Shown here: piece by piece, positions 1 through 28,845 of the stretch
Layout of the letters: every line of letters starts with the position of its first letter
Numbering within the stretch: position 1 is the stretch's first letter
Source of the DNA: Nitrososphaerales archaeon
Lineage (GTDB): Archaea; Thermoproteota; Nitrososphaeria; Nitrososphaerales; CADDZS01
Direction of reading: 5' to 3'
Assembly: GCA_035533635.1 (NCBI GenBank)
Contig: DATLTL010000061.1
Span: 1-37,047, forward strand
DNA: 37,047 nt
Translations under genes and position numbers: made by a program
Notes under the pieces: generated by a model
The model's input: only the letters and a program-made list of their open reading frames with translations
Databases searched by the model: none
Told to the model about the DNA's origin: nothing

Positions 1-528
1 AGAACCAGAGTGAAAATGGGCTCGGAGGAGCCCGGCTACGTGGCCTAACTGGGCTGTGTGTACTACATTGAAGATTGTCGTGCTTTTTGACTCGTTCCCA
101 GTCATGATTGCTCTAATTTACAAGGTGGAATTTAAACATTCGATTAGCTTTCTTATTGCGCCCCTGATATGATTCGCTTCACGAAATATTATGGAAGAAG
201 AGCAAAGAAGCATCCCTATTTTCCGCTAGTTCGAGGAGAAGCCGAAATACTGTCGTAGTGCTTCTCCAGATCGGGAGCAATCACCGCGCAGAGCTTGACA
301 TTGGCTACTATTTGTATTCGAGTAGAGATTGGTTCCTTCGGATGAGCATCTTCTTCTCAACCCCGAATGGCGATGACAGGAGTGCGCCAGCGGATTATGA
401 ATGCCCCTTTGACGAACTAACAGAAACATTTTCTGAAATAAAGCGGATCCTGGTGAACCAACGCAGGTTGCCGTTTGTGTTTCTGAGAATAATTCGGCAC
501 GCGCTTATATATTTCCTTGACGCGATGA

Positions 529-1554
529 ATGCGCTGCTTGTCATCATTATCAACTGCTGAAATCTTTAGGCGTACGAGGCTGCTCTTCAAAAATGTAGAC
601 AAGCTCAAACAAGTAGCTCTCTTCGGCCACCGCGCTGAGGAAGAAGATGGACTGCCAAGAGCGGAGATAGAGAAAATCGCCTTCTCTCATGCGGGATTAG
701 TACTTCGTAGCTTGACTGAGTACAATGTAAGAAGGATGTGTGGCGAGGCGGTATACGGCGCGGGACTCCAGAACTACACGCAGGGGAGGGTCTCAGACAA
801 GAAGTTTTCGAAGAACACTCTTTCAGGAAAGCTGGATGAGAGCGGCAGGAAGTGGCTATCCAGCCGTGACCCTCAGTTCTTCGAACCCACGATTACGCTT
901 GAAAGAAACTCGAAGAGACCGCTCATCTCCGGCGGCTGTGCCTGCTCTCTGGCGAGCGAAGGAAGTTTATGCGCCCACATCGCCGCTCTCATGATCGCTT
1001 GGGTCAGGAAACCCCAGGACTTTGTGGAGGGTGGCAATGACCAGACAATGAAATCCGAGTTCGAGGAGGCTATGCAGCGCGTTGTGGACTCGCTCAAAGA
1101 GCTGATCGGCTGCATCGAAAAGGGCAGTTCGAGTACTGATGATCTACGGCTGCTTCAGAAAACATACTCAAAGCTCAGGCTCTGGGCAGACGATGTCAAG
1201 GAAGCAAATGGCGGCGCTTTGGCAATACGCGGTGCACAACCAGACAAGGATTTGCGACCGCTGATTCGTGAATTCTCTGAGACGCTCAACTATGTGTCCT
1301 TTGCCCTAATGTTCGCTATTGAAAGCAAATACAAAGTCGGAACAACCGATCTCTACAACATGACAACCGTATCCACGTTTGCAAGAGTGCTCGAGTTGTT
1401 CGTCGAAAGCGAGGGTCGCAGAAAACCGGTTGACCCGATTTTAGTGAGAGGCAAAAGTGGAAGAAAAAGGGAAATGTTGACCAGCCCTGCGACAGTTTCA
1501 TCGCACACTGCGAGGAGCTGGGACAGCTTGGTGGAAAACTTCTCCGGCCGCTAG
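529..1554 (+). CDS. SWIM zinc-finger domain protein
   Basis: CxCx8CxH signature in GGCACSLASEGSLCAHIAALMIAW (Cys137/Cys139/Cys148/His150, nt 937-978). It follows the segment that usually precedes SWIM fingers. The rest is helical with no other domain recognised. The true start is probably downstream of 529, since the track gives the longest ORF. Confidence 0.6.
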   Translation: MRCLSSLSTAEIFRRTRLLFKNVDKLKQVALFGHRAEEEDGLPRAEIEKIAFSHAGLVLRSLTEYNVRRMCGEAVYGAGLQNYTQGRVSDKKFSKNTLSGKLDESGRKWLSSRDPQFFEPTITLERNSKRPLISGGCACSLASEGSLCAHIAALMIAWVRKPQDFVEGGNDQTMKSEFEEAMQRVVDSLKELIGCIEKGSSSTDDLRLLQKTYSKLRLWADDVKEANGGALAIRGAQPDKDLRPLIREFSETLNYVSFALMFAIESKYKVGTTDLYNMTTVSTFARVLELFVESEGRRKPVDPILVRGKSGRKREMLTSPATVSSHTARSWDSLVENFSGR

Positions 1555-3063
1555 TTGTTTATAGAACATGTGACAAATCAAAACGAAATGTCTGCAGGGG
1601 CATTAGCCGAACTCGACTCGAAGGCGAAGAGCGCGTTCGGTTCTTACGTGGTGAGAAAGGAGCTCGTGCAATCGCACGAGATAAGCAGGCTGCCTCGCTT
1701 CATCTCAGAGTACCTCGTGGCAAAGTTCTACCCTTCGGGAGAGCCGACACAAGACGACATACGTAAGCTTCAGGATTTCGTGACCGTACACTTTCCCGAG
1801 CTGAGAGACAAGGACAAGATACTGCATGACATCATGACGCAAGGCAGCTACACGCTGATGGACGAGTTCAAGGTTGAGACTGACATCAAGGGAGCAACGC
1901 ACCGCCTTTTCATTCCCTGTCTGAACATAAGAGACGCAAAGGTTCTCCCGACAATTCTGGACGAGAACACAGACCTGCTCCGTTCCGGGATGTGGGGCGT
2001 TGCGACGCTCAAGTACTTGCCCGACGGGGATCAGACGAAGGAAAGTGACACTTCTCCTGTGTTGATGACAAAGTTCACCCCATTCGAAGTGGTCAACGTC
2101 AAGCTTTCCGAGTTTGCCTCGAAGCGGCAGCTCTTCACAAGGAGTGAGTGGATCGACCTCCTCGTAAGGAGCATTGGGCTGAATCCAGATTCGTACAATC
2201 ATCACCAGAAACTCTTGCTCTTGCTGAGACTCGTTCCCCTCGTGGAGCCAAACTGCAACGTCCTGGAATTGGGACCGAAGGCAACCGGAAAGACCTACCT
2301 GTACAGGAACATATCGTATTCGACGAGGCTGATAGCTGGAGGAAGGGTGGGCCCGGCCACGCTGTTTTACAACATCGCGACAAAGACAGTGGGCGAGATC
2401 GGTGTGAGAGACTGCGTGGTGCTGGATGAGATAGGCAAGCTGACATTTTCAAACAGCGAGGAGATGATCGGAAAGCTGAAGGACTACATGGTTGACGGCT
2501 TCTTCGAAAGGGGTCCAAAAAAGGCGCACGCCAGCGCTTCAATGGTATTCATGGGCAATGCCGAGTTCGGTTCTTCGGGTGATTCTTCAGCACCATCAAC
2601 AAGAGATATTGTCAGCGCCCTCCCTCATTTCATGAGGGACTCTGCTCTCCTTGACAGAATCCATTGTTTCATCCCTGGATGGGAGCTTCCAAAGATAATG
2701 CAGTCGAGTGAACACCTCGCATCCGGGTACGGAATCGTTGCCGACTACCTTTCAGAAGTGTTTCACCAGATGTCGATGCAGGGATCGTACTCGGACATTT
2801 TCTGGGACAGAGTGAAGATCGAATCCTCAACGCAAGAAGGCGTCACGATAAGGGAGGAGAAGGCGATCAAGAAGGTGGCTTCGGGGATGCTCAAGCTACT
2901 CTGCCCCGACAAGGCGTGTGAGGAGCAGGACATCACAATAGCTATGAAGGTGGCGGTGGAGGGCAGGCAGAGGGTGAACGCGCTTCTAAGCTCGATCTCT
3001 CCAGAGGAGTTCGACAAGGACAAGGACATAAAGTTCTCTCCAAAATCCGCTTCGATCCCGTAA
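1555..3063 (+). CDS. BrxL-like AAA+ ATPase lacking the Lon protease domain (TIGR02688-like)
   Basis: The N-terminus (AFGSYVVRKELV...RLPRFISEYLVAKF) matches my recollection of the BrxL N-domain. Walker A GPKATGKT (nt 2272-2295), Walker B VVLDEIG, and the conserved IPGWELPK...GYGIVADYLSEVF segment are present. The ORF ends at about 500 aa with no Lon-type protease domain. Start is TTG 1555 abutting the upstream stop, or more likely ATG 1588 (MSAGALAELD). Confidence 0.7.
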   Translation: MFIEHVTNQNEMSAGALAELDSKAKSAFGSYVVRKELVQSHEISRLPRFISEYLVAKFYPSGEPTQDDIRKLQDFVTVHFPELRDKDKILHDIMTQGSYTLMDEFKVETDIKGATHRLFIPCLNIRDAKVLPTILDENTDLLRSGMWGVATLKYLPDGDQTKESDTSPVLMTKFTPFEVVNVKLSEFASKRQLFTRSEWIDLLVRSIGLNPDSYNHHQKLLLLLRLVPLVEPNCNVLELGPKATGKTYLYRNISYSTRLIAGGRVGPATLFYNIATKTVGEIGVRDCVVLDEIGKLTFSNSEEMIGKLKDYMVDGFFERGPKKAHASASMVFMGNAEFGSSGDSSAPSTRDIVSALPHFMRDSALLDRIHCFIPGWELPKIMQSSEHLASGYGIVADYLSEVFHQMSMQGSYSDIFWDRVKIESSTQEGVTIREEKAIKKVASGMLKLLCPDKACEEQDITIAMKVAVEGRQRVNALLSSISPEEFDKDKDIKFSPKSASIP

Positions 3064-3422
3064 GACAAAGGGGAAGTCATGTCTTCCTTCGACACTCCGT
3101 GGGTTTTGGCAGAGGTATAGCTGGGCCCACGTTGCCGAAAGAGGCGCGAACGTATCTGTTGTGTATGAGTCACACGTCACGCGCTCAAAAGTCTGGTCGT
3201 CTCCGCAACCGAGACTAGTATTCGCAACTCCCCAGATTGTTAGAAACGATCTTCGCACCGGGTCCACTAACCTTTAGGAAGTAGTCTATCACGACGCGTC
3301 ATTTGTTTAGTACTAGCCACTTTTCCTTTTCCTTGATCCCAAATGTCTTCGGTCGGGCATACCGAGAGATGGCAATCAATATAGCTCAAGACATAAGACA
3401 AGGGAACATGAACGGCAGATAA

Positions 3423-4841
3423 TTGCAAGACTGCACGCTGAATTTCGACAAGGGAACCATAGTAGTGAGAGGGGATGTCAGGATCCCAAACACTTCGTGG
3501 GACGAAAGAATCAAGTCGTTCAGGGCTCAGGCTCTTCACTACAGCGAGATTGTGCAGTACCTGAAGCGGAGCGCTCTTCCATTTTCCGACTTTGTGCAGG
3601 AAGGTTTGATGCCCTGCCCAAATTTGAGCTGCCCATCCATAAAGCTCAGGGGATACCAGAAGCAGGCTCTTACGGCATGGGACAAGTCGGGAAGGAGGGG
3701 AACTATAGTCCTCCCGACAGGATCTGGAAAGACGGTCATAGCCCTGAAAGCTATTGAACTAGTTAACCAGTCTTCAATCATTCTTATCCCCACTCTTGAT
3801 TTGTTGGAGCAGTGGAGGAAAAGACTCGCAAAAGAGCTCAACGTAGAGGTCGGAGTATACGGCGGCGGCGAAAACACGCTAAAGCCAGTGACAGTTTCTA
3901 CATACGATACCGCATACATTAGGGCGGCCGAGCTCGGGAACAGGTTCTCCCTTCTCATCGCAGACGAGGTCCATCACATCGCTTCTGAAGGGTACAGGCA
4001 GATCGCCGAGATGTTCGCGTCTCCCTACAGGCTAGGGCTGACAGCCACATTCGAGAGGGAGGACATGCTTCATAATGAAATCCCACGGCTCGTCGGTGGG
4101 GTCGTGTTCCGGATGGAGCCTGAAGATCTGGCCGGCAGGTACCTCTCCAACTTCCGGATAGAAAGGCTCAGGGTAGACCTCAAGGAAAATGAGGCGCAGG
4201 AATACGAGAAATACCACTCAATATTTAGAGACTACCTGACGAAGAACAGGATAACTCTGAACACCCCAATACAATTCCAGAGGTTTGTGATGAGGAGCGG
4301 CAGAGATCCGGAAGCGAGAAGGGCGCTGCTCGCAAGGAACAAGGCTCAGAAGATTGCCTTCAACTCAGAATCCAAGATAGAGAAGCTGGAGGAGATTCTG
4401 AGAGAAAATAGGAATGAGAGAGTGATAATATTCACTCAGCACAACGATCTGGTGTACAGAATTTCAAGGAGGTTCCTGATCCCCTTCATAACTCACACAA
4501 CGAACAAGGACGAAAGACACACCGTTTTGGAGCTCTTCAACAGCGGAGAGTACAGGGCCGTCGTCACATCCAAGGTTCTGGACGAGGGGATTGATGTCCC
4601 TGAAGCTTCGCTCGGAATCATCCTCAGCGGAACGGGAAGCTTAAGGGAGTTTGTGCAGAGGCTTGGCAGGGTCTTGAGAAAAAAGACTGACAGAGACGCA
4701 AGGTTGATCGAGATAGTATCAAGCGAGACATCGGAGGTTAACACGAGTTCGAGGAGAAGGAGGGGCCACCGAGATGGTGCGTCATCTTCATTGTCTCCTG
4801 AAAAAGCGTCGTCCACAAGCTCTGGAAGATCATATCAATGA
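3423..4841 (+). CDS. xpb: XPB (Rad25/ERCC3-type) superfamily-2 DNA helicase
   Basis: N-terminal damage-recognition-like domain (LNFDKGTIVVRGDV...WDERIKSFRAQALHY). Helicase motifs LRGYQKQA, PTGSGKT, DEVHH and LGLTATFEREDM (the XPB-specific RED motif), plus VTSKVLDEGIDVPEA and REFVQRLGRVLR. Confidence 0.85.
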   Translation: MQDCTLNFDKGTIVVRGDVRIPNTSWDERIKSFRAQALHYSEIVQYLKRSALPFSDFVQEGLMPCPNLSCPSIKLRGYQKQALTAWDKSGRRGTIVLPTGSGKTVIALKAIELVNQSSIILIPTLDLLEQWRKRLAKELNVEVGVYGGGENTLKPVTVSTYDTAYIRAAELGNRFSLLIADEVHHIASEGYRQIAEMFASPYRLGLTATFEREDMLHNEIPRLVGGVVFRMEPEDLAGRYLSNFRIERLRVDLKENEAQEYEKYHSIFRDYLTKNRITLNTPIQFQRFVMRSGRDPEARRALLARNKAQKIAFNSESKIEKLEEILRENRNERVIIFTQHNDLVYRISRRFLIPFITHTTNKDERHTVLELFNSGEYRAVVTSKVLDEGIDVPEASLGIILSGTGSLREFVQRLGRVLRKKTDRDARLIEIVSSETSEVNTSSRRRRGHRDGASSSLSPEKASSTSSGRSYQ

Positions 4842-4953
4842 TTGGTATTGAAGAATCTCGGATAGATTGGATACAGCCAACTCGTTCATTCAACTCCAAG
4901 CAACTGATTTGATCTCGCTAAGTCGAACAAACAGGGGAGGTTGAAGTCTACAT

Positions 4954-6741
4954 ATGCTTCCATCAAATCTACTGAGAGCAAGGGTTTCGAGAGGAGGCGC
5001 GATAAGGCTCCTATATGCATCTCCCGTTACCACCGCAGAACTTGCGCACAGCCTGATCGACATTTTCAGGAAATCTCAGGGGATGAAGAAAGGTGACCTA
5101 TTCGAAAAGCTGGAAGAAGCAGAGTCGACTGGTGATAACGGCAAGAAAACAGACTCCACCATGGTAGACCATGACTACAAGCTCGTGAGGGGGCTTTCGG
5201 AACTTCTGATGAGGATGTGCGTTTTTGAATCTGAAAGAACTGAGATAGATCCCAAACGTGCAAGGGAGCTTGTCTTCAGGAAAGCAAGCAAGAGCAGGGC
5301 TACTTCAGTTTCAGAGATTGGTCGGGTGATTAGCGAAGCGGCCAGCGAGGTGGGGAAGAAGGAAGAAGATCTTCAAAGATCGCTCTGGGCCGACCTCGAC
5401 GAAGAGCTCATCATGAAACAGTTTAACCCGCCAAAGAGCGCGGAAGATCTGATCAGGTCATACAACCTGTCCCTAGCCCAAACCGCTCTTTTCAAATGTT
5501 CAAGGTTAGAGTTCACGGCCTCCGGGAACTGGAAGAACATCTTCTGGGGAATCAAAAGGCTCGGAATGATGTACGTAGTAGAAGCAGTCAATGGCAGTGG
5601 GAGCAGCAGTAGCAGCAGTAATAATAGAAGCAACAACATCGGTGACAAACCCGATTACTTGGTTTCTCTCGACGGCCCTCTTTCGCTTTTCAAGTGGACC
5701 GACAGATATGGGACCTCACTTGCCAAACTCCTTCCTCAGATAATAGGAAACGAGTCTTGGAGAATAAAGGCACAGATAGTCGATAAGAGGAAAAACAGGA
5801 TCCTTTCCTTCGAGGAATCGAGCGAAAACACAAGCGGGTTTTTTCCCACTGATGAGGCAATTGGAGGCAGACGACTGTACGACAGCAGCGTCGAAGAAAA
5901 GTTTGCAAAGAGTTTTGCCTCCCTCGGCGATACGGGGTGGACTCTCAGGAGGGAACCAGAGCCGCTCTTGACTGATCCTTCGCCCGAGACTGGGATCAGG
6001 CATATCATAATCCCAGATTTCAGCTTTGAGAAACGGGGTACGCGGAAGAAGGTCTATCTGGAAATAGTGGGATTTTGGACTCCAGAGTACCTGACAAGGA
6101 AGCTCGAGAAGCTCTCACTGCTCCCGAAGGATTCTGTTGATATCATAATAGCCATCGACGAGGATCTGGTATGCTCAAGCGGCGGGGATAGGAGGAAGTT
6201 CCTTCATCTTGTTCCTGCTCTAAACGAAAGAAGGGTGGTCACCTATTCATCAGGGAAGAAAGTTCCTCTCGCGCCGATTTTCGAACACCTCAAGCTGATA
6301 GACGATGAAATCGTAAAAGGAGAGACCCAGCGGATTTTGGAAATGCTCAGAGGGGCTGAATTCAAGCAGGATGTGATCCGGCTGGAAGAGATTGCCTCGA
6401 ACTGGGGCGTCACCCCCAAAGCAGTACGTGCCGCGCTCGTATCAGAGGGTGTGAATGGATATTCCAAGATCGGCGACCATTTGGTCAGCGAAAAGAAACT
6501 AGAAGAAGTAAGAAAGAAAATAGAAGTGCTCATTCACCGCACTGCCGGACATACTAAAAATGGATCAACAATAGCAGAAGTAGTGGGAGCAAAAGCAGAG
6601 GAAGAAGCAAGCCTGATGGAAGTGAACGATGCCATACAGTCGTGCGGCCTCGATCCACCCGGCGTTATAGAAGCGTTGGGTTACACCATTGTCTGGGAGG
6701 GACTGGATATGGATAAGAGTAGGGTGATCAGGGAAAAATGA
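4954..6741 (+). CDS. bax1: Bax1 / DUF790 family nuclease (XPB partner)
   Basis: N-terminus MLPSNLLRARVSRGGAIRLLY is typical of DUF790/Bax1. PD-(D/E)xK-like core IIIPDFSFE ... VYLEIVGFWTPEYL. It lies directly downstream of xpb, as in characterised archaeal XPB-Bax1 pairs. At 595 aa it is longer than I recall for typical Bax1 (roughly 400-460 aa), with a Ser/Asn low-complexity insert and a C-terminal extension. Confidence 0.75.
   Translation: MLPSNLLRARVSRGGAIRLLYASPVTTAELAHSLIDIFRKSQGMKKGDLFEKLEEAESTGDNGKKTDSTMVDHDYKLVRGLSELLMRMCVFESERTEIDPKRARELVFRKASKSRATSVSEIGRVISEAASEVGKKEEDLQRSLWADLDEELIMKQFNPPKSAEDLIRSYNLSLAQTALFKCSRLEFTASGNWKNIFWGIKRLGMMYVVEAVNGSGSSSSSSNNRSNNIGDKPDYLVSLDGPLSLFKWTDRYGTSLAKLLPQIIGNESWRIKAQIVDKRKNRILSFEESSENTSGFFPTDEAIGGRRLYDSSVEEKFAKSFASLGDTGWTLRREPEPLLTDPSPETGIRHIIIPDFSFEKRGTRKKVYLEIVGFWTPEYLTRKLEKLSLLPKDSVDIIIAIDEDLVCSSGGDRRKFLHLVPALNERRVVTYSSGKKVPLAPIFEHLKLIDDEIVKGETQRILEMLRGAEFKQDVIRLEEIASNWGVTPKAVRAALVSEGVNGYSKIGDHLVSEKKLEEVRKKIEVLIHRTAGHTKNGSTIAEVVGAKAEEEASLMEVNDAIQSCGLDPPGVIEALGYTIVWEGLDMDKSRVIREK
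5593..5637 (+). repeat. AGC/AGT/AAT/AAC trinucleotide low-complexity tract inside bax1 (encodes GSGSSSSSSNNRSNN)
   Basis: Direct reading: ggc agt ggg agc agc agt agc agc agt aat aat aga agc aac aac. Confidence 0.8.
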
Positions 6742-7614: not shown

Positions 7615-8928
7615 TTAACATTTTCCGCCGAGGAACGATGTGTTTGTTCCAATCGTATCAATTCTCCCTATCTTATTCAATTTGAGTGACAAGAGATAGC
7701 TCAGACTGACTGGTTTGTAGTCTAACAGCTCACAGCTGACGTTGATCGTCCTCTTCTCTCCTTCGACGAAAGGATAATCTCTCACGTTATTGTTGTGTTT
7801 GTCGCCGTGAATGACCCAGGCGCGATTTGCTTCCACCCACCTTCGAAGGTCGTCGGGCAGTTCATTGGGATCGTGTGCTACAGCGAAGCACTTCGTTTCC
7901 TTCTCGTATTCGTCCCTGATACTGAATTTGTCGAATTGGATAGTTCCCACGCTATCATCGTCATGGTTACCCTTTACGAAGATCTTTTGTCCTTTTAGTT
8001 TTGGCCACCAGTATTTCGAAGGCTTGCGATCTCTTCCAAATGTTAGGTCGCCGAGAAAGTAGACCTTGTCATTGTCCCCTACTGTACCATTCCAGTTTTG
8101 AATAAGTACACTATTCATTTCGTTGATATCTTCGCAGAAGGGTCTTGCGGTATAGCTGATGATATTTCCATGGTCAAGATGAAGGTCGCTGATGAAAAAT
8201 ATTTTGGGATTACTCCTCATGCGTGAAAGCTGCCCAAGCAATCTAGAATGCTTCAGTTCGATCCCCTTCTCGACCCTGTACGCTTTGAGTGTCTTGCGCC
8301 ATTCGCTCCAATCTAGCGCCTGCTCACGCGTGAAGAGCTTCTTCCGAACCAGATCGTATTCCCGATCAATTCTGCCTCCTTGATCAAGTATTGTCACCCT
8401 CAGCGCATCTAGAGGGAGGTATGGCCTCCCTTTCTTGATGTGGAGATTTTGTCCTTTTGCCCCATCTCTTCTAGAATGTTCATTGCTTAGGAATTCCCAA
8501 ACACGTTGAAGGTCATCGTCAGAAAGATCCCATCCAATAGTAATGTGGAACCAGGGGTCATTGTTCTCGTGATCCCAAGGTTGTACACTCGGGAAATCTT
8601 TGCTCAAAGCTCTTACCAACTCCCTTCTAAAGGAGAGAAGTTCAGGACTCGGCAGAATTCTGAACGCAATTACGTTGCCCTCGGTGCCCCTAACCTTCGA
8701 TTCGTAGTCGTCGACAAGATAAGGGAGAGTGCTATGCTTGTTGCATACTCTTTCGAGGAGTTTCCGTAGTTCCGGCCACTTGCGTTCCGGGACTTCGGCG
8801 TTTCCGTACAAAGTTAGATGCGGAATCTTTGCAACCTTTCCGTGGCGTACTAAATCGTTTGCTGCAACTGCATTCAGCACAGACCTAAAGCGGAAGTCGC
8901 CCGGCCTGACCCTAAGCTCGACGAGCAA
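7615..8928 (-). CDS. 2H phosphoesterase (LigT/CPDase-like) fused to a calcineurin-type metallophosphoesterase
   Basis: The N-terminal half has the two HxTx motifs of the 2H superfamily (IPHLTLYG and WFHITIGW). The C-terminal half has metallophosphoesterase motifs FFISDLHLDHGN, YFLGDLTFG, VKGNHD and VIHGDKH. Confidence 0.7.
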   Translation of the reverse strand: MLVELRVRPGDFRFRSVLNAVAANDLVRHGKVAKIPHLTLYGNAEVPERKWPELRKLLERVCNKHSTLPYLVDDYESKVRGTEGNVIAFRILPSPELLSFRRELVRALSKDFPSVQPWDHENNDPWFHITIGWDLSDDDLQRVWEFLSNEHSRRDGAKGQNLHIKKGRPYLPLDALRVTILDQGGRIDREYDLVRKKLFTREQALDWSEWRKTLKAYRVEKGIELKHSRLLGQLSRMRSNPKIFFISDLHLDHGNIISYTARPFCEDINEMNSVLIQNWNGTVGDNDKVYFLGDLTFGRDRKPSKYWWPKLKGQKIFVKGNHDDDSVGTIQFDKFSIRDEYEKETKCFAVAHDPNELPDDLRRWVEANRAWVIHGDKHNNNVRDYPFVEGEKRTINVSCELLDYKPVSLSYLLSLKLNKIGRIDTIGTNTSFLGGKC

Positions 8929-10333: not shown

Positions 10334-11584
10334 ATGACTGAAGCAGTTGTTAGCAGTGGCACACCTACCCTGAAGGAGATTGAGCTTTCAAAATGCGACA
10401 TCCATCCACTGTTCAAGAACATGAGGTTCGACTGCGCCGAAGACATCGAGAAACTTTGCGAATTGATTCACATCAACGGTCAGCAGTTACCGGGAATCGT
10501 AGTTCCCGTACCTGGTAACGAAGGTTACTACTGGTCGACTATTGGAAACAGGCGGTTGCTTGCGTGCAAGATGTCAATGGAGAAGTACGGCACGCCAGAG
10601 ACGTTCCTTGCGATGATCAAAGAGGATCTAATAGATCAGGACATCGTAATCAAAAAGTACGTCGAGAACTTTTCGGAAGATGGTGGTGGCAGAAAGGATC
10701 TCTCTTTTCTCGAAGAAGCTTCCTCTCTCAGCGAGATGATTTCTAGATTCCCGACAGAGTTCAGAAAGAAAGTTGCAATAGGCATGAACGCGACGGAGGA
10801 AGCCATCCAGAGAAAAGTTGACTTGTTCAAAAGGCTGGATCCTGCGATGGTGGCCGACCTCCACAGGTTGGAGCGACACGTCGTCCCACCATTCTATTTC
10901 ACGTACGAACACGTGGAATCCCTCATATCACTCCATCTTGGTAGAGAGGCAACGCTCAAGATTGCGGCGCTAGTTGCAGAAAGGCGGGCATCTCCGTCGT
11001 TTGTAGATGCTTACGCGCTTGCACTCGACACTGGAAAAGTAGGTGAACCTGAATGGCTATACACGATATTTCCGGATATCGAGCGACGGAGAGAAGAGGA
11101 GAAGAAAAAAGACAAGATTTCACAAATGAAAGAGGTGGCAACAGCTCCTTCTTCTAATTCCGCATTTCTAAAGAATGCAGTCAGCGTAGGATGCTTCCAC
11201 TGCGGTTTCGAGAATCCACTCAAATCAACTCTCAAAGGAACCGTTAGCTTTCTGAATCCATCCGATCCAATTCACAAGGAATCGATGGAACCAATTTCAT
11301 ATCTCTTGCCTCCCAAGGTCTGTTGGAACTGCCATAAGCCATTCTCAATAATTGTGCACGGACGGACGAAGATCAAGTCGATTCCTCCAGTTGAAGAGAA
11401 CGACGAGTACGCTGGAGAAGAGTTAGCAGGTACATTCGAATCAAAGCTAGGGCTTATCGACTTCGATCAAGATGCGGCGGAGTGCAAGGAGGGTTGCTTG
11501 CTTTGCCACTGGATCTTTGCTACCATGAAGGGAAGGTTCAAGCTTGACCATGCGACGGGACGGTTCACTGTCAACGCTCAGTAA
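10334..11584 (+). CDS. ParB/Srx N-terminal-domain protein with C-terminal zinc-ribbon-like Cys pairs
   Basis: ParB-N-like segment IELSKCDIHPLFKNMRFDCAEDIEKLCELIHINGQQLPGIVVPV...YWSTIGNRRLLACKM (GxRR box). The C-terminus has CFHCG...CWNCH and CKEGCLLCH. Confidence 0.55.
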   Translation: MTEAVVSSGTPTLKEIELSKCDIHPLFKNMRFDCAEDIEKLCELIHINGQQLPGIVVPVPGNEGYYWSTIGNRRLLACKMSMEKYGTPETFLAMIKEDLIDQDIVIKKYVENFSEDGGGRKDLSFLEEASSLSEMISRFPTEFRKKVAIGMNATEEAIQRKVDLFKRLDPAMVADLHRLERHVVPPFYFTYEHVESLISLHLGREATLKIAALVAERRASPSFVDAYALALDTGKVGEPEWLYTIFPDIERRREEEKKKDKISQMKEVATAPSSNSAFLKNAVSVGCFHCGFENPLKSTLKGTVSFLNPSDPIHKESMEPISYLLPPKVCWNCHKPFSIIVHGRTKIKSIPPVEENDEYAGEELAGTFESKLGLIDFDQDAAECKEGCLLCHWIFATMKGRFKLDHATGRFTVNAQ

Positions 11585-14632: not shown

Positions 14633-16831
14633 TTGATAGTCAACGAAGCTCTTGAAGATGAGACGAAAGAAATACTTGATCCGTCCTCTGGCTCCGGTAC
14701 ATTTCTAGCAGCTAGTATTCGTAGAAAGAAAGAATTGATGTCGAAGAACAAGAAATACTCTGCTTCTGCTCAACTTGACTTGATTATGCGAACTGTCAGA
14801 GGGATCGATGTTCATCCTCTTGCAATTATACTGTCAAGGGCGAACTATTTGGCAGCTATTGGACCTGAACTATTATCTGCGCGACGGGGCGCTATTTCGG
14901 TTCCTGTGTATCTTGCAAACTCGCTCAGACTTCCTGAGACCGCAACTGATCTGCATCAAGGCGTCAGTTCGTACAAAATTGATGCTGAGAAAAAAATTCT
15001 AAGGTTGCCAATACAAATTGCAAAAGATCCTGATTTTACGGATATCGCAATAGAAACAGTTCGCGAATACTCTCACGAGGTAGCCTCTGGGCTTAGCCCA
15101 AAGATTGAGGAATTTGAAAACTTGCTTTATCAGAGATTAACCGCTCAACAGAAAAACAAGCTCGAAAAGAATGCTCCAAGCATTCTTCTTGAAACCGCAA
15201 TCACAATGGCTGATCTTATCAAAGAGGGAAAAGACACGATCTGGGCATTTATTCTGAAAAACATATACAAACCTCTTTTTCTCCAAGCCGAAAAATTTGA
15301 TGTCATTGTAGGTAACCCTCCGTGGCTTTCGTACCGATATGTTGAGAGTACTGAATACCAAGATTTTCTAAAGAATTTGATAATTGATAAGTACAATATA
15401 CTCGGCAAGGAAAGAGCAGAACTAATTACACAGATGGAACTTGCAACTCTCTTCCTAGCTAGAGCATCGGACTTGTTTCTGAAAAAGCAAGGAACAATTT
15501 ACTTTGTCATGCCCAGAAGTGTCTTCGTAAGTGACCAACACTTCAATTTTAGAGATGGAAGTTCCAAGCCTTCAATGAAACTTTTCCAGCTTTACGATCT
15601 TGAGGATGTCGAACCTCTTTTCAAAGTGCCTAGTTGTGTTGTGGCAGCGAAATTTGGAACTCCCGCCAAACAAGTCGACGCTAAGATCTTTGAAGGAAAA
15701 CTTCAGCGGAAAAATGCTAAATTGAAAGAAGCTTTGGCAGTACTCACTTCCACTGACAAGAAATTTCAGTGTTACAGGATCGGGCAGCGCTCATTTCTTG
15801 AAAGCGTGGAATTTCAGAAAGTATTACGAGCAATCGAAAAAAGCAAGCCCAGTGAATATTACAAGAATTTTACGCAAGGCGCAACGATTGTCCCGCGTCA
15901 ACTGTGGTTTGTTGAACCAGTTGTCCACGAGAAACTTGGAATGGACCCTTCTATGCCGAGACTCAAGACTTCTCAAAGAGCAATTGATCGAGCAAAAGAA
16001 CAGTACGCAGATGTACGAGTGGAAGGCGAAGTCGAATCTAGATTCCTATTCGGAGTCGCCACGGGATCGGAATTAGCCCCATTCTGCTCAACCACACTTC
16101 CAGTAGTTGTGTTACCTATTGAGGCAAGTGAAGGCAAGTACCACATGCTTGATGTTGAGGAATCTCAAAGGAAAGGATACTCGGGATTGAAAGAATGGCT
16201 TGTAACTGCCGAGAAAACTTGGAAAAAGAAGAGAGGTGAAAAGGCGACCAAGATGAGCATCTACCAAAGACTAAATTATTCGCACTGCCTGACCAACCAG
16301 AGTTCAAAAAAGAAATACAAAGTTCTCTATAATGCATCGGGAACATATCTTGTATCGTGTATAGTTAGAAATCAGAAAGAGGTTGTCGAATTAGAAAATT
16401 CACGAATTAATATTACTGGAGTAGTCGCCGATGCGAAAGCTTACTGGTTCGATACAAACAACCTAGATGAAGCTCTTTTTATCACATCCATGCTAAACTC
16501 GCCCATTGTTGACTCTCTTATCAAACCAATGCAGAGTCACGGACTTTGGGGAGAACGTGATATTCACAAGAAAGTGCTCGAGCTTCCTCTCCCAAAGTTT
16601 GATTCGTCGAATAAATCCCATATCGCCATGGTAGAACTTGCAAAAAAAGCACAAGTGAAAGCCGAAACTTTGATTCCAAGTCTTGAAAAGAAGTACGTCG
16701 GGATAGGAAAAATTAGACAACTTATCAAGGTCGAATTGGCAGAGGAATTACTCAACATAGACAAGATCATGCGCGAATTACTTAGTAAGATTGGTGATTT
16801 GGACAGTGGAATGGAAGGCTTTCTCAAGTAG
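14633..16831 (+). CDS. gamma-class N6-adenine DNA methyltransferase (M.TaqI/Eco57I-like), 5' end disrupted by an apparent frameshift
   Basis: Motif I ILDPSSGSGTFL and motif IV VIVGNPPWLSY are present. Motif X GEYYTPDWLAELIV is encoded in-frame just upstream of the called TTG start, but that frame is closed by TGA at 14594. ATG 14581 (MKRLLTG) lies in the +1 frame. The long C-terminal region is a presumed target-recognition domain. Confidence 0.85.
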   Translation: MIVNEALEDETKEILDPSSGSGTFLAASIRRKKELMSKNKKYSASAQLDLIMRTVRGIDVHPLAIILSRANYLAAIGPELLSARRGAISVPVYLANSLRLPETATDLHQGVSSYKIDAEKKILRLPIQIAKDPDFTDIAIETVREYSHEVASGLSPKIEEFENLLYQRLTAQQKNKLEKNAPSILLETAITMADLIKEGKDTIWAFILKNIYKPLFLQAEKFDVIVGNPPWLSYRYVESTEYQDFLKNLIIDKYNILGKERAELITQMELATLFLARASDLFLKKQGTIYFVMPRSVFVSDQHFNFRDGSSKPSMKLFQLYDLEDVEPLFKVPSCVVAAKFGTPAKQVDAKIFEGKLQRKNAKLKEALAVLTSTDKKFQCYRIGQRSFLESVEFQKVLRAIEKSKPSEYYKNFTQGATIVPRQLWFVEPVVHEKLGMDPSMPRLKTSQRAIDRAKEQYADVRVEGEVESRFLFGVATGSELAPFCSTTLPVVVLPIEASEGKYHMLDVEESQRKGYSGLKEWLVTAEKTWKKKRGEKATKMSIYQRLNYSHCLTNQSSKKKYKVLYNASGTYLVSCIVRNQKEVVELENSRINITGVVADAKAYWFDTNNLDEALFITSMLNSPIVDSLIKPMQSHGLWGERDIHKKVLELPLPKFDSSNKSHIAMVELAKKAQVKAETLIPSLEKKYVGIGKIRQLIKVELAEELLNIDKIMRELLSKIGDLDSGMEGFLK

Positions 16832-18069: not shown

Positions 18070-18873
18070 ATGGAGAGCCTATCTGGTCTAAGGAATGCGA
18101 GATGTCCTGAATTGGGAGACAAAAGCGCCATAGAATGGACTGACGCCTCGTGGAATCCTACCACTGGTTGCGATAAGGTATCACCTGGTTGCAAAAACTG
18201 CTATGCGGAACGTCTTGCTGGCAGATTACAACTTATGGGCAATCCGAAATACAAGAACGGTTTCAAGTTCACTGTCCAAGAGAGCGCCCTAGACCTCCCC
18301 CTCAAATGGAAGGAGCCTAGGAAGATATTCGTTAATTCAATGAGTGATCTGTTTCATGAAGAAATGCCCTTTGGGTATCTCAAGAGGTGCTTCGATATTA
18401 TGAAGAAGGCTGATCGGCACAGATACCAAATATTGACCAAAAGACCTGAAAGGATGCAGGAATTCGCGGAGTTCTATGGAGAAATCCCTGACCACGTATG
18501 GATGGGAACTTCGGTTGAAATGGCCTTCTACAAGAAACGGATCGATATTCTGAGAAACATAGAAGCAAAGATAAGGTTCATCAGCTTTGAACCATTGCTA
18601 GGAGCAATCGGCAAAGTGAACTTTAGAGGAATTTCTTGGTCAATAGTGGGTGGTGAGAGTGGACCTGGGCACAGGCCGATCGAAAAGGAATGGGTGCGAG
18701 AGATAAGAGATCAGTGCAAGACTCAAAAAGTTGCCTTCTTCTTCAAACAATGGGGTGGTGCCACGCCAAAGTCAGGTGGACGACTTCTTGATGGCAAGTT
18801 ATGGAACCAATACCCTGAACCTGCGCCTAACTACACTAAGCGGACAATGCAACCACTACAGCTAGTATCATAA
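18070..18873 (+). CDS. DUF5131 / phage Gp37-Gp68 family protein (PF07505-like)
   Basis: N-terminal IEWTDASWNPTTGCDKVSPGCKNCYAERLA is the family hallmark with its three-Cys motif. FISFEPLLG and VGGESGPG...FFFKQWGG are also family-typical. Confidence 0.8.
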   Translation: MESLSGLRNARCPELGDKSAIEWTDASWNPTTGCDKVSPGCKNCYAERLAGRLQLMGNPKYKNGFKFTVQESALDLPLKWKEPRKIFVNSMSDLFHEEMPFGYLKRCFDIMKKADRHRYQILTKRPERMQEFAEFYGEIPDHVWMGTSVEMAFYKKRIDILRNIEAKIRFISFEPLLGAIGKVNFRGISWSIVGGESGPGHRPIEKEWVREIRDQCKTQKVAFFFKQWGGATPKSGGRLLDGKLWNQYPEPAPNYTKRTMQPLQLVS

Positions 18874-19117: not shown

Positions 19118-20188
19118 TTGTCGCAGGTCCAAATTCCAAGCGATCCGATCAGTGAAAGTTTCGCACTCTGCAAGAACACACTGGAGAACATTGGGCAACA
19201 TACTCTTACCATGCGCGCGCTGGATTCGATACTCGATCAATTCATCAACGATGAAGATGCAATCAAGGGCGACGAGACGACCGAACAGATAGATTTCAAA
19301 CCTCATGATGAGATTTCACTCTCTACAGTTAATCCAACAATTGGAATTCCCAAAACAGTCTATGCGGTTGATTCTAGCAGCATCGTCTTGGGTCAAGGAG
19401 TAAAGGGGGGTGTTCTCTTCAGCATCAGAGTTGTCGTTCTGAGCTGGAACCCAAAGGTAGGAAAGAGATCAATAGTGGACAGATTCGAAGTTCCAGGCTT
19501 TGTTTCGAATGAGAACAAAGAGGATTTGTATCATGGGCTCCGATCGAAGCTATGGAATCTGAGCCGAGAAGATGTCAAGGCGCCGGAACCATTCAAGATG
19601 GTCGACAGGATCAGAAATATTTACGAAAGGTATGCACAGATCGAGATTTCAAAGAAGATTGATGATTCCATATTACTGGTTGACGGATCTCTGACAGCTG
19701 ATACAGTGGATACTCCTTCAGCTGTGTTGGAAGAAGTCCTGAAGAACGCTGCCACTAATAGCTCCGACGTAGTCGCCATATCCAAAAAGACAAGATTGAC
19801 TACGGCGTCCGGAACAAGAATACTCGAACTGCTCGGCGAAAATACGAAGATTCCAGCTATAGTTCCAATTTCGAAACTTCTTTCTCCAAGGGCGCCATAC
19901 CGGTTGCTCGGTGAGGTCTATGTGGGAAGATTGAGTGGTGTGCCGATTTCTTTTCGAATCGATGTGAGCTCAAAGAGAGATCATGCACACGTCTTTGGAG
20001 ACCTTCTGGCGAGCGTGCCTCTCGAGAGTGGATATCCTGTTCCTCTGATTCATGCGCATGTTCATTGCTATTATAATTCATTTGATGTACTAGGCGTGAG
20101 AGCATTCTTGGCCAAGAAGCGCGTCCCGATGACTGAGGAATTTGATATAAGACGGATTCTGTTTGGCATGTATGGCGGAGGAGCTTGA
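19118..20188 (+). CDS. nurA: NurA-domain nuclease
   Basis: VYAVDSSSIVLG and ILLVDGSLTAD match the NurA catalytic Asp motifs. It is followed after 5 nt by a HerA-type ATPase gene. Confidence 0.6.
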   Translation: MSQVQIPSDPISESFALCKNTLENIGQHTLTMRALDSILDQFINDEDAIKGDETTEQIDFKPHDEISLSTVNPTIGIPKTVYAVDSSSIVLGQGVKGGVLFSIRVVVLSWNPKVGKRSIVDRFEVPGFVSNENKEDLYHGLRSKLWNLSREDVKAPEPFKMVDRIRNIYERYAQIEISKKIDDSILLVDGSLTADTVDTPSAVLEEVLKNAATNSSDVVAISKKTRLTTASGTRILELLGENTKIPAIVPISKLLSPRAPYRLLGEVYVGRLSGVPISFRIDVSSKRDHAHVFGDLLASVPLESGYPVPLIHAHVHCYYNSFDVLGVRAFLAKKRVPMTEEFDIRRILFGMYGGGA

Positions 20189-20193
20189 ATTAG

Positions 20194-21687
20194 TTGATAG
20201 TTATTGAGAAATACTTTGACCGACTTTCAGTACTTTACAATCCCTTGACCGAGCAGGCAAGAGTTGGAGAAAGTCTCCTAATTCATGAGCCCGGAATCCA
20301 AAATGGACCCAATGGAGTAATTGCTCAGATAATCGAGGAAAGACCCTATGTTCCCATGGGAATGAGAGATAGCCTTCTTATCGAATCACTTACACCGGAA
20401 ATAACCACTAGCACCGCGCAACCAGAAGAGCTGGGTGCTGCTCGTTCTGAACTGCGAAATCAAAAAACTATCATCGCCAAGATCAGACTTAGCGCGATTG
20501 TAGACAAGGGAAAATCTCTTCCCTCATCTCTTGTTCCATGGACTGGCTGGAGCCCCACTCCGAGCTCTAAGGTCACAAAGATTTCAGATTCAGAGATTCT
20601 CAGATTCATCGATCTCAAGGGAACTACTAAGAATATTGCCTCGATTGGAAAGACTACTGGCGACACTCCTTTTGATTTTAATCTATACTACCTTCACGGC
20701 ATCAGTACTCTTGTTGGAGGGCGGGGAACTGGCAAGAGTCATCTCGCGAAGAAATTTGCTCTAAAGCTTGTTGATGCGGGACGCCAAGTGATTATTTTTG
20801 ACATCAATGATGAGTGGACTGCCATGGAAAAAGGCGCAGATGGCAAGGAGAGCCCATATGCAAAGAAAATTGTAAGGGCAAACCCCGGGGAATCACTCTC
20901 TTTTGATCTGAAGTATCTTGGAAAGATAGTTTTCATTTCTATGCTGAAGATGATGAATCTTGATCCATCTACCTCTTCTGTTCAAACTCTCATGAACAAG
21001 TGGGACGAGCTCGACAGGGAGAAGAAACTCACATTCGATAATTTGAAGAAGACCGCCGAGTCGACAAATGAAAAAGTGAAGGAAGCGCTTCAAACTAGAT
21101 TTGCACAGTTGGAGAATAGCGGAATAATAGCGTCTGGCGAAAACAATGGAACGAGTATACAGGCGTTGCTTGAAAAGATAAAGGAGGGAGGACTTCTTGT
21201 CGTAAACCTCAAAGACAAGCCAAAGATTTCGCAGTACGTCATCGTTCAGCTCTTCACAAGCAAACTTGCGAACATTCTCTCCGATCCAAGATCAACCCCG
21301 CTTGTCCTGATTGTCGAAGAAGCGCAGACATACATGAGCAATTTCGATATTGAGGAAATCGTAGCAAGGCTCAGGCACCTGGGGCTCCATCAGATCTATA
21401 TCACCAACAGCCCACAGAGCTTGACTCCGTTCCTCATGAGCCACATTTCGAACTGGTTCCTATTCAATCTCGTGAATCAGCAGGACATTGAATATCTTCA
21501 ACGATCTCTGCCCCTTGACCTGGAGTCTGCCAGTGTTCTCATCAGAATGCTTCCCCCCAGACAGGCGCTTGTTGTGATAAACGAGAACTACAAGGACTCG
21601 ACAAAGAATTATCCTTTCGTAGTCAAGGTTGATCCAATTCCATATCAGACCGCAGGAGTGACAAGAGAGCTTTTTGAAGCTCCTTAG
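20194..21687 (+). CDS. herA: HerA-type (DUF87/FtsK-HerA superfamily) ATPase
   Basis: N-terminal HAS-barrel-like segment (ARVGESLLIHE...GVIAQIIEE). Walker A GGRGTGKSHLAKKF and Walker B LVLIVEEAQ. The size (497 aa) and its pairing with nurA fit HerA. Confidence 0.7.
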   Translation: MIVIEKYFDRLSVLYNPLTEQARVGESLLIHEPGIQNGPNGVIAQIIEERPYVPMGMRDSLLIESLTPEITTSTAQPEELGAARSELRNQKTIIAKIRLSAIVDKGKSLPSSLVPWTGWSPTPSSKVTKISDSEILRFIDLKGTTKNIASIGKTTGDTPFDFNLYYLHGISTLVGGRGTGKSHLAKKFALKLVDAGRQVIIFDINDEWTAMEKGADGKESPYAKKIVRANPGESLSFDLKYLGKIVFISMLKMMNLDPSTSSVQTLMNKWDELDREKKLTFDNLKKTAESTNEKVKEALQTRFAQLENSGIIASGENNGTSIQALLEKIKEGGLLVVNLKDKPKISQYVIVQLFTSKLANILSDPRSTPLVLIVEEAQTYMSNFDIEEIVARLRHLGLHQIYITNSPQSLTPFLMSHISNWFLFNLVNQQDIEYLQRSLPLDLESASVLIRMLPPRQALVVINENYKDSTKNYPFVVKVDPIPYQTAGVTRELFEAP

Positions 21688-23841: not shown

Positions 23842-24411
23842 TCATCTGATATGTCGTTCCAAACGGCTTTTTGTTTGGTTATACCATGTTTTGTAGTATA
23901 TTTGCCATGATCTACTTGCAAATATCACTTCTTCAGAAGCGTCTTTTGGTAAGCTTGAGTACATTAAGCGATAGGTCAAACGTAATCCAAGATTCGACTT
24001 GATTCTAGATCCAAGCCAACTAGAAATATTTTGAATCTCTGTGGCGGTGTCATGGTCAGAGTTATCCGCAGTTCGTCTTGCTACGTCTTTAGTAAATTCT
24101 GGCGCATCATCCGTGATGGTCATGTCGTAACCGTTTATGAAACAAAAGAATGCCGTTGTCATTAGAGCCGTTCTTTTGTTTCCATCTGTAAAAGGATGGA
24201 AATTGATGTATGCATACATCAGTGCGCTTATCTTGCTAAGAAGGCTAGGGAATGGGATAAAATGATAAACATCTGTCTTTACCCATTCAATCGAGCCTTC
24301 AACCATCCCCTTCGACATCCATCCTTGATCGCCTCTTAGCTTGATCAAGACATCGTGAAAGTCTTGAACGTATTTGGGTGTAGGATAGATTATCCTGTTT
24401 GGATGAGCCAA
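23842..24411 (-). CDS. Doc/Fic family protein (toxin-type)
   Basis: Fic-fold active-site motif HPFTDGNKRTAL, the Doc-type HxFx(D/E)GNKR variant. Size is 189 aa. Confidence 0.8.
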   Translation of the reverse strand: MAHPNRIIYPTPKYVQDFHDVLIKLRGDQGWMSKGMVEGSIEWVKTDVYHFIPFPSLLSKISALMYAYINFHPFTDGNKRTALMTTAFFCFINGYDMTITDDAPEFTKDVARRTADNSDHDTATEIQNISSWLGSRIKSNLGLRLTYRLMYSSLPKDASEEVIFASRSWQIYYKTWYNQTKSRLERHIR

Positions 24412-27346: not shown

Positions 27347-27961
27347 ATGACTACAGAAATGCAAAGCAAGGAAAAACTTGCGGAATCTGAATATTTCCTA
27401 GAGCTTCTTCGAAGCAACTTTGGAGACCTAAGAATTATGAAATATTGCTTCTCCGCATTCATGAGCGCAGTTCACAGCACAATGGACATCATGCTGTACG
27501 ACTGTGCTGAGGCGTTTGAATTGCGTCTCACGCGAGAGGAGAGATTCGAACAAAGAGACTTCGCACTAGTTGCCCGAGCAAAAGAAAATAAAAACGCTTT
27601 GGAATTTCTTGCATGGTGGAAGCAAAAGGTGGGACTCCTGAGCAAGAATCCCCTGTGGAATACACGACATGTGATAAACCATCGTGGTTATCCTCCAGTG
27701 AAGCAGACTGTATTTGTTTCTGGAACTATTCTGGCTCAATCCAGTGTCAGTTACGAACTTCCTTCTATTGATGAAGTCATCGTTAGTGGTTCCGTAGGGC
27801 CCGTATTACCCAGTAACGCTTGGCAGAATATTGTTACAAATCCAGAAATCTATCTTGAGGAGTTTCCAGACATCGACCTTCGAAAACTATGTCAGATGTT
27901 ATGGAGCGAAGTCGGAGCCATCGTTTCAGAGGCCGAAAAGAAGTTCTTGAGTGCGCGATGA
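27347..27961 (+). CDS. hypothetical alpha-helical protein with a possible HEPN Rx4H motif
   Basis: Helical N-half (SEYFLELLRSNF...FSAFMSAVHSTMDIML) followed by NTRHVINHRG (R-x4-H). It overlaps the next gene by 11 nt. Confidence 0.35.
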   Translation: MTTEMQSKEKLAESEYFLELLRSNFGDLRIMKYCFSAFMSAVHSTMDIMLYDCAEAFELRLTREERFEQRDFALVARAKENKNALEFLAWWKQKVGLLSKNPLWNTRHVINHRGYPPVKQTVFVSGTILAQSSVSYELPSIDEVIVSGSVGPVLPSNAWQNIVTNPEIYLEEFPDIDLRKLCQMLWSEVGAIVSEAEKKFLSAR

Positions 27962-28838
27962 TGAGAAATCTGGCTCTAGGTCAAGAAATCACATGAATGC
28001 AGAGAGTAAAGGACTTCTGATACATATTGGAGCGGACACATCGAATGATGAAACTCTCGGAATCGTTGGTCCAGTTTTTCATGACAATCAATTTGAATTC
28101 ATCCCTATCGTTGAAACAATGCCGAGACAAGGTGCTCCAACTTATAGAGACATTAGGTGCACATCACGGCAATCTAGCCCCTACAACAGAAATCTTTCGT
28201 TCTACGTTCGTGAGCCCCTTGAACAGAAACCATGTCATTACGACCCTAACCCTGAAGGTTTCACTTATTCCGAGCCTCCTGATGCGAGAAGGGGAAAGCA
28301 GTTACTTCGCTTGTTACCAGATGATTTCATTTTCTTCGTTGCCAGTCTAGCCCAGTATTCGGAAGAGAGTTACCGCGAAGTTGATACATCAACAATTCGA
28401 CGACATCAGGCAGGACAAATGACAAAATATCTGATTGGCTATTTCAAGATAAGAGAAGTATTCCAAGTTGACACCAGTGCGACGGAGCAGTCTCGCCACT
28501 ATTCCATAAGAATAGCCCGAAACAACGCGGAAATAGATTCCTCTATGCTCGAGGCGGTTGAACCACAAATCAGGATCAACGCTCACTTCCTAAGACCATC
28601 TGACCGATTCATATGTGCGGTTGGCAATAGAATCGGAATGAAAGGGCAACAACGGCTGTCTCTGTTATTACCTGAAGCTATCCCGCTTACTGAAGGCTGG
28701 CCATTCAAACCGCTTCCCTTCGCCGAAAGGGTTTATGGGAAACTGAACTATCCGAGGGGTCACAAGTGGATTCCTAACGATTTGCGTCCAGATGGATTGC
28801 AGACTCTATTGTCCCGGATTTCAGAATTAGGAGAATGA
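27951..28838 (+). CDS. hypothetical protein resembling the Nmad3-type 'nucleotide modification associated' family
   Basis: LLIHIGADTSNDETLGIVGPVFHDNQFEFIPIVE follows the pattern h-h-x-G-x-D-S/T...G..(G/S)P(I/V)F.D(G/N).F.F(I/L)PI that I associate with that family. HYDPNPEGFTYSEP and DDFIFFVASL follow. The likely start is the Met of MNAESKG (27993). Confidence 0.35.
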   Translation: MRDDEKSGSRSRNHMNAESKGLLIHIGADTSNDETLGIVGPVFHDNQFEFIPIVETMPRQGAPTYRDIRCTSRQSSPYNRNLSFYVREPLEQKPCHYDPNPEGFTYSEPPDARRGKQLLRLLPDDFIFFVASLAQYSEESYREVDTSTIRRHQAGQMTKYLIGYFKIREVFQVDTSATEQSRHYSIRIARNNAEIDSSMLEAVEPQIRINAHFLRPSDRFICAVGNRIGMKGQQRLSLLLPEAIPLTEGWPFKPLPFAERVYGKLNYPRGHKWIPNDLRPDGLQTLLSRISELGE

Positions 28839-28845
28839 ATGGGAC

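Follow-up and report, generated by a model that had tools for sequence, protein, structure and literature searches.

A SWIM-motif protein and a short BrxL form a conserved gene pair that adjoins XPB–Bax1 at an island border in a Nitrososphaerales archaeon

Four consecutive genes at an island border

The contig DATLTL010000061.1 of a soil archaeon of the Nitrososphaerales (Thaumarchaeota; GenBank assembly GCA_035533635.1), an order to which named homologues also assign the contig, analyzed here from position 1 to position 37,047 of its forward strand (this whole stretch of 37,047 nt is referred to as the window), carries close to its left end four consecutive genes on the plus strand. They encode a protein with a SWIM zinc-finger motif, a short BrxL-like AAA+ ATPase (sBrxL), an archaeal XPB helicase, and a Bax1 (DUF790) nuclease. 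An initial annotation, made from the sequence alone, proposed that the four constitute one candidate DNA-surveillance or defense system of undescribed composition; the comparative analysis reported here points instead to two neighboring two-gene cassettes, SWIM–sBrxL and XPB–Bax1. All four open reading frames (ORFs) were found at the coordinates first given, and comparison with related loci (designated below by their L numbers) resolves two blocks of nucleotide homology:

529..1554, plus strand: SWIM-motif protein, 341 amino acids (aa); ORF, motif conservation, structural model
1588..3063, plus strand: short BrxL (sBrxL), 491 aa; TIGR02688, Pfam, PADLOC
3064..3422, no strand: spacer between the two cassettes, 359 nt; 3080–3384 without a match in any related locus (blastn)
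3423..4841, plus strand: archaeal XPB helicase, 472 aa; Pfam, alignment to 6P66_A
4954..6741, plus strand: Bax1/DUF790 nuclease, 595 aa; Pfam DUF790, PDB Bax1 chains
396..3079, plus strand: SWIM–sBrxL nucleotide homology block; blastn against related loci
3385..6731, plus strand: XPB–Bax1 nucleotide homology block; blastn, 80% nucleotide identity to L104–L106

The spacing of the genes largely agrees with the initial annotation: the gap between the XPB and Bax1 genes is 112 nt, as given there, and the gap that precedes XPB is present, with a length of 359 rather than 360 nt. The statement that the SWIM stop codon abuts the next gene holds for an ORF opened at TTG 1555, from which sBrxL would be 502 aa long; it does not hold for the called gene, which starts at ATG 1588, 33 nt downstream, both in L107 and in a 100%-identical database entry (P0044), and which gives the 491-aa product. 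L107 is a near-identical contig (4 mismatches in 12.5 kb) that reaches 5.7 kb further left, and its extension holds housekeeping genes as far as the SWIM gene, in agreement with the proposed position at an island edge. Beyond Bax1, on the right, the window encodes a 2H-phosphoesterase/metallophosphatase fusion, a ParB-like protein, a winged-helix regulator, and an Eco57I-like methyltransferase, followed further on by DUF5131, a NurA–HerA pair, Fic, Nmad2, and Nmad3. The four genes sit at the border of a variable, defense-rich island. An Rfam scan of the whole window, spacer 3064..3422 included, returned no family, and a search for repeats flanking the cassettes gave only short, chance-level matches with no recognizable element ends.

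A conserved SWIM–sBrxL operon outside BREX

The initial designation of sBrxL as a protease-less, BrxL-like AAA+ protein is borne out by profile searches. The protein scores 455.9 bits against TIGR02688 (NCBI cut-off 329.3) over model positions 3–448 of 449, contains the Pfam domains BrxL_N (PF20442) and BrxL_ATPase (PF13337), and is matched by the BrxL models of PADLOC; a Pfam scan found no Lon protease domain in it. An N-terminal DNA-binding region is combined with an MCM-like AAA+ domain in which the Walker A motif (GPKATGKT) and the sequence VVLDE are present. The protein aligns (E = 6e-76) to residues 7–463 of the 679-residue Acinetobacter BrxL (8EMC), a component of type-1 bacteriophage exclusion (BREX; structures 8EMC/8EMH) that forms an ATP-dependent hexameric ring around double-stranded DNA, has DNA-dependent ATPase activity and an MCM-like fold, and requires its ATPase site for phage restriction (PMC10164562). 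Because the alignment spans this region and both Walker A and Walker B are conserved, a DNA-encircling ring would be expected for sBrxL by analogy. The Acinetobacter protein differs in possessing a Lon-like C-terminal domain, which in 8EMC mediates tail-to-tail dimerization of rings; since this domain is missing from sBrxL, its higher-order assembly may differ from that of 8EMC. The BrxL of type-4 BREX likewise lacks the C-terminal domain, according to a 2026 survey of BREX systems (PMC12839542), and resembles sBrxL in belonging to the same TIGR02688 family and in consisting of an N-terminal DNA-binding region and an MCM-like AAA+ domain. It is, however, encoded in an operon with BrxP, BrxC, and PglZ, whereas the sole conserved partner here is the SWIM protein.

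That partner was initially assigned a SWIM finger, an assignment that Pfam does not confirm: the score against the SWIM profile (PF04434) is 11 bits (cut-off 19.6; E = 0.34), far under threshold, and scans with Pfam, NCBIfam, and PADLOC returned no significant match. In place of a profile match, the assignment is based on motif, homologue, and fold. The residues C137-x-C139…C148-x-H150 are invariant in two alignments, of 17 and of 33 homologues; a divergent member of the family, encoded in L016, scores 19.3 bits on Pfam SWIM, the best score in the family; and an AlphaFold model (predicted local distance difference test, pLDDT, 74), in which strands are followed by a helix at residues 149–160, has ZSWIM8 as its top PDB match (E = 1.5e-3). 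The predicted layout comprises N-terminal helices, a beta-sheet and helix bearing the CxC…CxH motif, a helical bundle, and a disordered tail. At the C-terminus (residues 329–341; window 1513–1554), a low-confidence linker is followed by a conserved RSWDxL[VI]ExF motif that could be a docking peptide for sBrxL.

The full-length family of this SWIM protein is restricted to Nitrososphaerales-like archaea. Grouping at 90% identity gives 43 clusters; at 50% identity, no more than 31 clusters out of 1.84 billion representative proteins reach E ≤ 1e-10, and weaker matches span the generic SWIM region only. A metagenome scan with the SWIM alignment yielded only 12 loci, mostly on short contigs, and neither the SWIM nor the sBrxL alignment gave a match among the viral contigs of IMG/VR. 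Makarova, Aravind, and Koonin reportedly noted in 2002 that stand-alone SWIM proteins are encoded beside SNF2 or superfamily 2 (SF2) ATPases in prokaryotes. The present pair is similar in that a small SWIM zinc-finger protein is encoded directly beside a DNA-dependent ATPase and different in that this ATPase is of the BrxL/MCM-type AAA+ ring class, not an SF2 helicase.

Linkage of the two genes is strict. Protein look-ups, together with scans of GTDB genomes and of metagenomes, supplied 24 further homologous loci with enough downstream sequence, and in every one of them sBrxL follows the SWIM gene within 8–33 nt; removal of duplicates leaves ~13 independent contexts with an informative flank. 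By blastn, the SWIM–sBrxL block of the window is 92% identical in nucleotide sequence to L001, 90% to L092, and 86% to L009–L011 and L094; these matches all end within 3038–3079, with differing flanks. The ratio of nonsynonymous to synonymous substitution rates (dN/dS) is 0.25–0.33 for SWIM, 0.10–0.12 for sBrxL, 0.10 for XPB, and 0.14 for Bax1; purifying selection thus acts on SWIM and sBrxL, as it does on XPB and Bax1. Sequence divergence is about three times as fast in the SWIM protein as in sBrxL (in L006, for example, 45% vs. 81% identity). Among 80 genome loci encoding sBrxL, at least 24 are PglX/PglZ (BREX) operons, 13 are operons with a DUF1156 methyltransferase, and 6 have a SWIM partner, all six of the latter in Nitrososphaerales or Nitrosocaldales. 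Identity to the sBrxL of the window is 54% or more for SWIM-type proteins and 52% or less for those of BREX-type and other non-SWIM contexts. SWIM–sBrxL is a strictly linked, conserved operon outside BREX, so far confined to Nitrososphaerales and Nitrosocaldales, and sBrxL itself is portable, having at least three different sets of partners in archaea. The protein family is known, and the pair is a conserved variant of its context. No description of the pair was found in the literature searched (BrxL with SWIM; TIGR02688), and SWIM, XPB, and DUF790 are not mentioned in the BREX survey (PMC12839542); what survives of the undescribed composition claimed for four genes is this narrower pair.

The initial annotation had also set the locus apart from BREX, citing the lack of PglZ, PglX, and BrxC, and in this respect it was right. 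No match to the PglZ profile PF08665 was found in the window ORFs scanned, and neither the window nor any of the other 31 SWIM-type loci gave a tblastn match to an archaeal PglZ. BrxC/PglY and PglX (or BrxP) are not adjacent to the four genes, BrxC having been looked for only by Pfam scans of window ORFs, and PglX is absent from the other SWIM-type loci. The sole PglX-like methyltransferase domain of the window, of the Eco57I/PglX type (14633–16831), lies 11.5 kb away with seven genes between. Its presence in the window, together with the NCBIfam label of TIGR02688 as a BREX component, could suggest that sBrxL has remained from a BREX operon now decayed, with the SWIM ORF as an unrelated or even spurious neighbor. 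Against this, the two genes have stayed together in ~13 contexts, none of which has PglZ or PglX close by; SWIM and sBrxL are both under purifying selection; and SWIM-type sBrxL proteins are more similar to the window protein (≥54% identity) than any from non-SWIM contexts (≤52%). We regard an orphan BREX remnant as extremely improbable and reject it on the grounds of conservation with the SWIM gene and of purifying selection.

One copy of the pair appears decayed. In L110:10001–12199, which is syntenic with L009, the SWIM ORF is out of frame from about residue 190 onward, and all that is called of sBrxL is a BrxL_ATPase fragment of 149 aa, the result of either gene loss or long-read indel errors.

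Separately, sBrxL is part of another conserved operon, whose co-directional genes include one for a DUF1156 methyltransferase (L022:3646–12748; also L021, L024, L026, L049, L053, L057, L058, L059, L071, and L076). This operon was found in 13 archaeal genomes that include Bathyarchaeia, Pyrodictium, Sulfolobales, and Infirmifilum, and is partial in L072 and L073. Its first product is the DUF1156 anti-phage methyltransferase (~1020 aa); then come a protein of ~1085 aa, sBrxL itself, and two smaller proteins of ~271 and ~172 aa, in that order. The ~1085-aa, ~271-aa, and ~172-aa proteins gave no profile match. This operon looks like a BREX-related (DUF499/DUF1156) system with sBrxL in the place of the helicase, and it may be undescribed, given that the survey treats BrxL as specific to BREX types 1 and 4 (PMC12839542).

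XPB–Bax1 and the case for two cassettes

The identities initially assigned to XPB and Bax1 hold. XPB contains the Pfam domains XPB_DRD (58.5 bits, cut-off 26), ResIII, Helicase_C, and ERCC3_RAD25_C, and aligns over its full length to Archaeoglobus fulgidus XPB (6P66_A, residues 6 to 449; E = 7e-135); the damage-recognition domain, motif I (PTGSGKT), DEVHH, and the RED motif (FERED) are all visible. Bax1 matches Pfam DUF790 (E = 1.5e-101; 340 bits, cut-off 28.8) and the structures 6P66_B and 6P4O_B, and its nuclease motif, IPDF…YLEIVGFWT, is retained in the alignment with 6P66_B. Scores against the NCBIfam equivalogs fall below the cut-offs for both XPB (NF045503; 199.8, cut-off 610) and Bax1 (244, cut-off 500). 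The two are full-length homologues of the proteins of the archaeal XPB–Bax1 complex (A. fulgidus, 6P66; Sulfolobus, 6P4F/6P4O) and are encoded by an adjacent gene pair (with the 112-nt gap here); the differences are a low-complexity Ser/Asn-rich insert in Bax1, which has a C-terminal domain as well, and the location in a variable island. XPB–Bax1 is here a canonical, already known helicase–nuclease pair. Deletions of archaeal XPB have so far given a mild UV phenotype only (reviewed in PMC7690668).

The Bax1 of the window belongs to a small clade (77% identity), most Bax1 proteins of Nitrososphaerota being ~42–45% identical to it. Its relatives in L104–L106 share 77% aa identity in Bax1 and 80% nucleotide identity over the pair. 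In these loci (L104:4798–11767; also L105 and L106), XPB–Bax1 stands head-to-head with genes for a 281-aa PCNA paralogue (E = 4e-40 with sliding-clamp models) and for a P-loop protein of 738 aa that matches MutS_V weakly. At a distance of a few kb, Multi_ubiq and ThiF-like (E1) genes are present. XPB–Bax1-like pairs are common on mobile replicons: helicase–DUF790 pairs, in which the gene for a DEAD-box helicase overlaps that for DUF790, were found on 42 plasmids, 12 of them from Deinococcus and many haloarchaeal. The two plasmid neighborhoods inspected (NC_015163.1, 51759–54393; NZ_CP112975.1, 37983–40734; L114 and L115) contain replication/partition genes and transposases, with no BrxL or SWIM.

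The proposal of a single four-gene system is not supported by a gene-neighborhood census and fails the co-occurrence test that the initial annotation had itself set: XPB–Bax1 lies beside the SWIM–sBrxL pair in only 2 of the ~13 independent informative contexts, namely the window and L015. XPB and Bax1 are absent from L001, L002, L006, L009/L110, L012–L014, L016, L017, L098, and L111; the sBrxL of L009/L110 is 93% identical to that of the window. Nor was XPB or Bax1 found at any of 74 non-SWIM sBrxL loci (sequence examined up to 10 kb on each side), and, conversely, none of three independent contexts of related XPB–Bax1 pairs contains SWIM or BrxL (L104–L106, L108, and L109 have neither). When the window is compared by blastn with all collected loci, the homology blocks 396–3079 and 3385–6731 remain separate, with 3080–3384 unmatched between them. 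The two pairs, having separate closest relatives and separate homology blocks, have separate histories. It is likely that the region of the four genes consists of two autonomous two-gene cassettes, SWIM–sBrxL and canonical XPB–Bax1, brought together at the island border.

All four genes recur at just one other locus, L015 (5343–11498), where the order of the pairs is reversed, XPB–Bax1–SWIM–sBrxL, with a Bax1–SWIM gap of 105 nt and with genes for an EfeU-like permease and an aldo-keto reductase as flanks. The XPB of this locus is frameshifted and without its first 131 residues, which hold the damage-recognition domain and Walker A; the sBrxL there is frameshifted too. This damage may be due in part to sequencing or assembly error, the assembly being a long-read metagenome-assembled genome. 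The nearest relatives of the L015 Bax1 (84% and 62% identity) are found without SWIM and sBrxL. Since neither the arrangement in the window nor that in L015 is inherited from nearest relatives, the two have separate origins, and the adjacency of XPB–Bax1 and SWIM–sBrxL arose twice as a recent juxtaposition.

Several observations weigh against two unconnected cassettes. Two independent juxtapositions in ~13 contexts exceed what random placement in a ~3-Mb genome would give; a 733-aa DEAD/Lhr-like SF2 helicase is encoded 616 nt upstream of SWIM–sBrxL in L016 (3011–8643); and fragments of DUF559 (Vsr-like endonuclease) and AAA_12 helicase genes lie convergently downstream of the pair in L009 (8188–9118). 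Such helicase and nuclease neighbors would be compatible with a loose functional affinity. The same data are explained, with no functional link, by a clustering of mobile modules in variable regions.

A stronger form of this affinity would be a facultative four-gene system, in which SWIM–sBrxL senses or loads onto foreign DNA and recruits XPB–Bax1 as an optional helicase–nuclease effector, much as BREX loci recruit auxiliary nucleases. In its favor, two unrelated arrangements place the pairs side by side in the same direction, neither of them inherited from the nearest relatives of either pair; SWIM–sBrxL has the helicase as a neighbor in L016 and the nuclease/helicase fragments in L009; and BREX-family loci are reported to gather auxiliary nucleases (PMC12839542). 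We nevertheless consider such a system quite unlikely, because 11 of the ~13 contexts lack XPB–Bax1, the closest relatives (92% nucleotide identity) included, because the XPB of L015 is frameshifted and without its first 131 residues, because the 359-nt spacer between the pairs in the window has no homology, and because XPB and Bax1 are missing from all 74 non-SWIM sBrxL loci within the sequence examined. A four-gene restriction-like machine would be the more striking result, but the data do not support it, and two separate cassettes remain the preferred reading.

Possible functions and the remaining island

For the SWIM–sBrxL cassette, we infer ring formation by sBrxL, an adaptor role of the SWIM protein, and a function in defense. 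By analogy with Acinetobacter BrxL, sBrxL would assemble in an ATP-dependent manner into a ring around double-stranded DNA. The faster-evolving SWIM protein would be the adaptor, sensor, or specificity subunit of sBrxL, its zinc finger binding DNA or a target and the protein itself docking on the ring, possibly via the conserved C-terminal RSWD tail. Since the pair has no methyltransferase or nuclease of its own, it would act by occupying or remodeling DNA; it might, for example, block replication of an invading element or hand the DNA to unlinked nucleases. XPB–Bax1, for its part, opens a DNA bubble and cuts it, and is a cassette that moves independently.

A role of SWIM–sBrxL in defense is plausible because its distribution is patchy, because near-identical cassettes occur in different contexts, and because some copies have toxin–antitoxin or TnpB genes as neighbors. 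Many of the flanks are, on the other hand, housekeeping genes, which weighs against such a role. These flanks are one of the observations that would fit a lineage-specific DNA-maintenance factor of Nitrososphaerales, acting in replication, repair, or chromatin, in which case the adjacency to XPB–Bax1 would reflect a shared DNA-repair neighborhood. Several loci are flanked by housekeeping genes only (aldo-keto reductase, oxidoreductases, ferredoxin, PGK), sBrxL has a dN/dS of ~0.1, a sign of strong conservation, the BrxL ATPase fold is MCM-like (PMC10164562), and the SWIM protein has no viral or PADLOC match. A maintenance factor is hard to reconcile, however, with the patchy distribution and tiny size of the family (43 clusters at 90% and 31 at 50%), with the occurrence of the same cassette, at 86–92% nucleotide identity, in different genomic contexts, and with the copies that lie beside toxin–antitoxin genes, TnpB genes, or a defense-type island; moreover, all other contexts found for sBrxL are restriction-like systems. 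We judge DNA maintenance unlikely, if somewhat less so than the facultative four-gene system.

The most far-reaching reading, that SWIM–sBrxL is a minimal, methylation-free, BrxL-based immune module of soil Thaumarchaeota that recruits helicase–nuclease pairs, XPB–Bax1 among them, as effectors, seems very unlikely, slightly more so than facultative recruitment as such. If it were true, the role of archaeal XPB–Bax1 would be defense against mobile DNA rather than excision repair. The mechanism of BrxL is still debated, and its usual setting for study is the six-gene BREX operon; a natural context of just two genes, in which a short BrxL has one rapidly evolving zinc-finger protein as its partner, offers a far simpler system for the action and targeting of the BrxL ring.

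The remaining features of the island, to the right of the four genes, are as follows:

7615–8928, minus strand: 2H phosphoesterase (2'-5' RNA ligase-like) and metallophosphatase fusion, 437 aa
10334–11584, plus strand: ParB/RepB-like protein with a Cys-rich C-terminal half
14633–16831: Eco57I/PglX-like methyltransferase, in the low-G+C part, aligned over 334 aa to an archaeal PglX methyltransferase domain (32% identity)
18070–18873: DUF5131, in the low-G+C part
19118–21687: NurA–HerA pair, in the low-G+C part
23842–24411, minus strand: Fic, in the low-G+C part
27951–29466: Nmad3/Nmad2, in the low-G+C part

The G+C content is ~0.49–0.52 from 1 to 13 kb and ~0.43 from 13 to 35 kb, and rises again beyond 35 kb; that of the housekeeping flank on the left is 0.46. 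A 437-aa gene downstream of the pair in L012 was considered as a counterpart of the gene at 7615–8928, which would have marked XPB–Bax1 as an insertion, and was rejected, as blastn gave no nucleotide similarity between the two. The fusion gene at 7615–8928 and the ParB/RepB-like gene at 10334–11584 hint at a plasmid-derived or integrated element.

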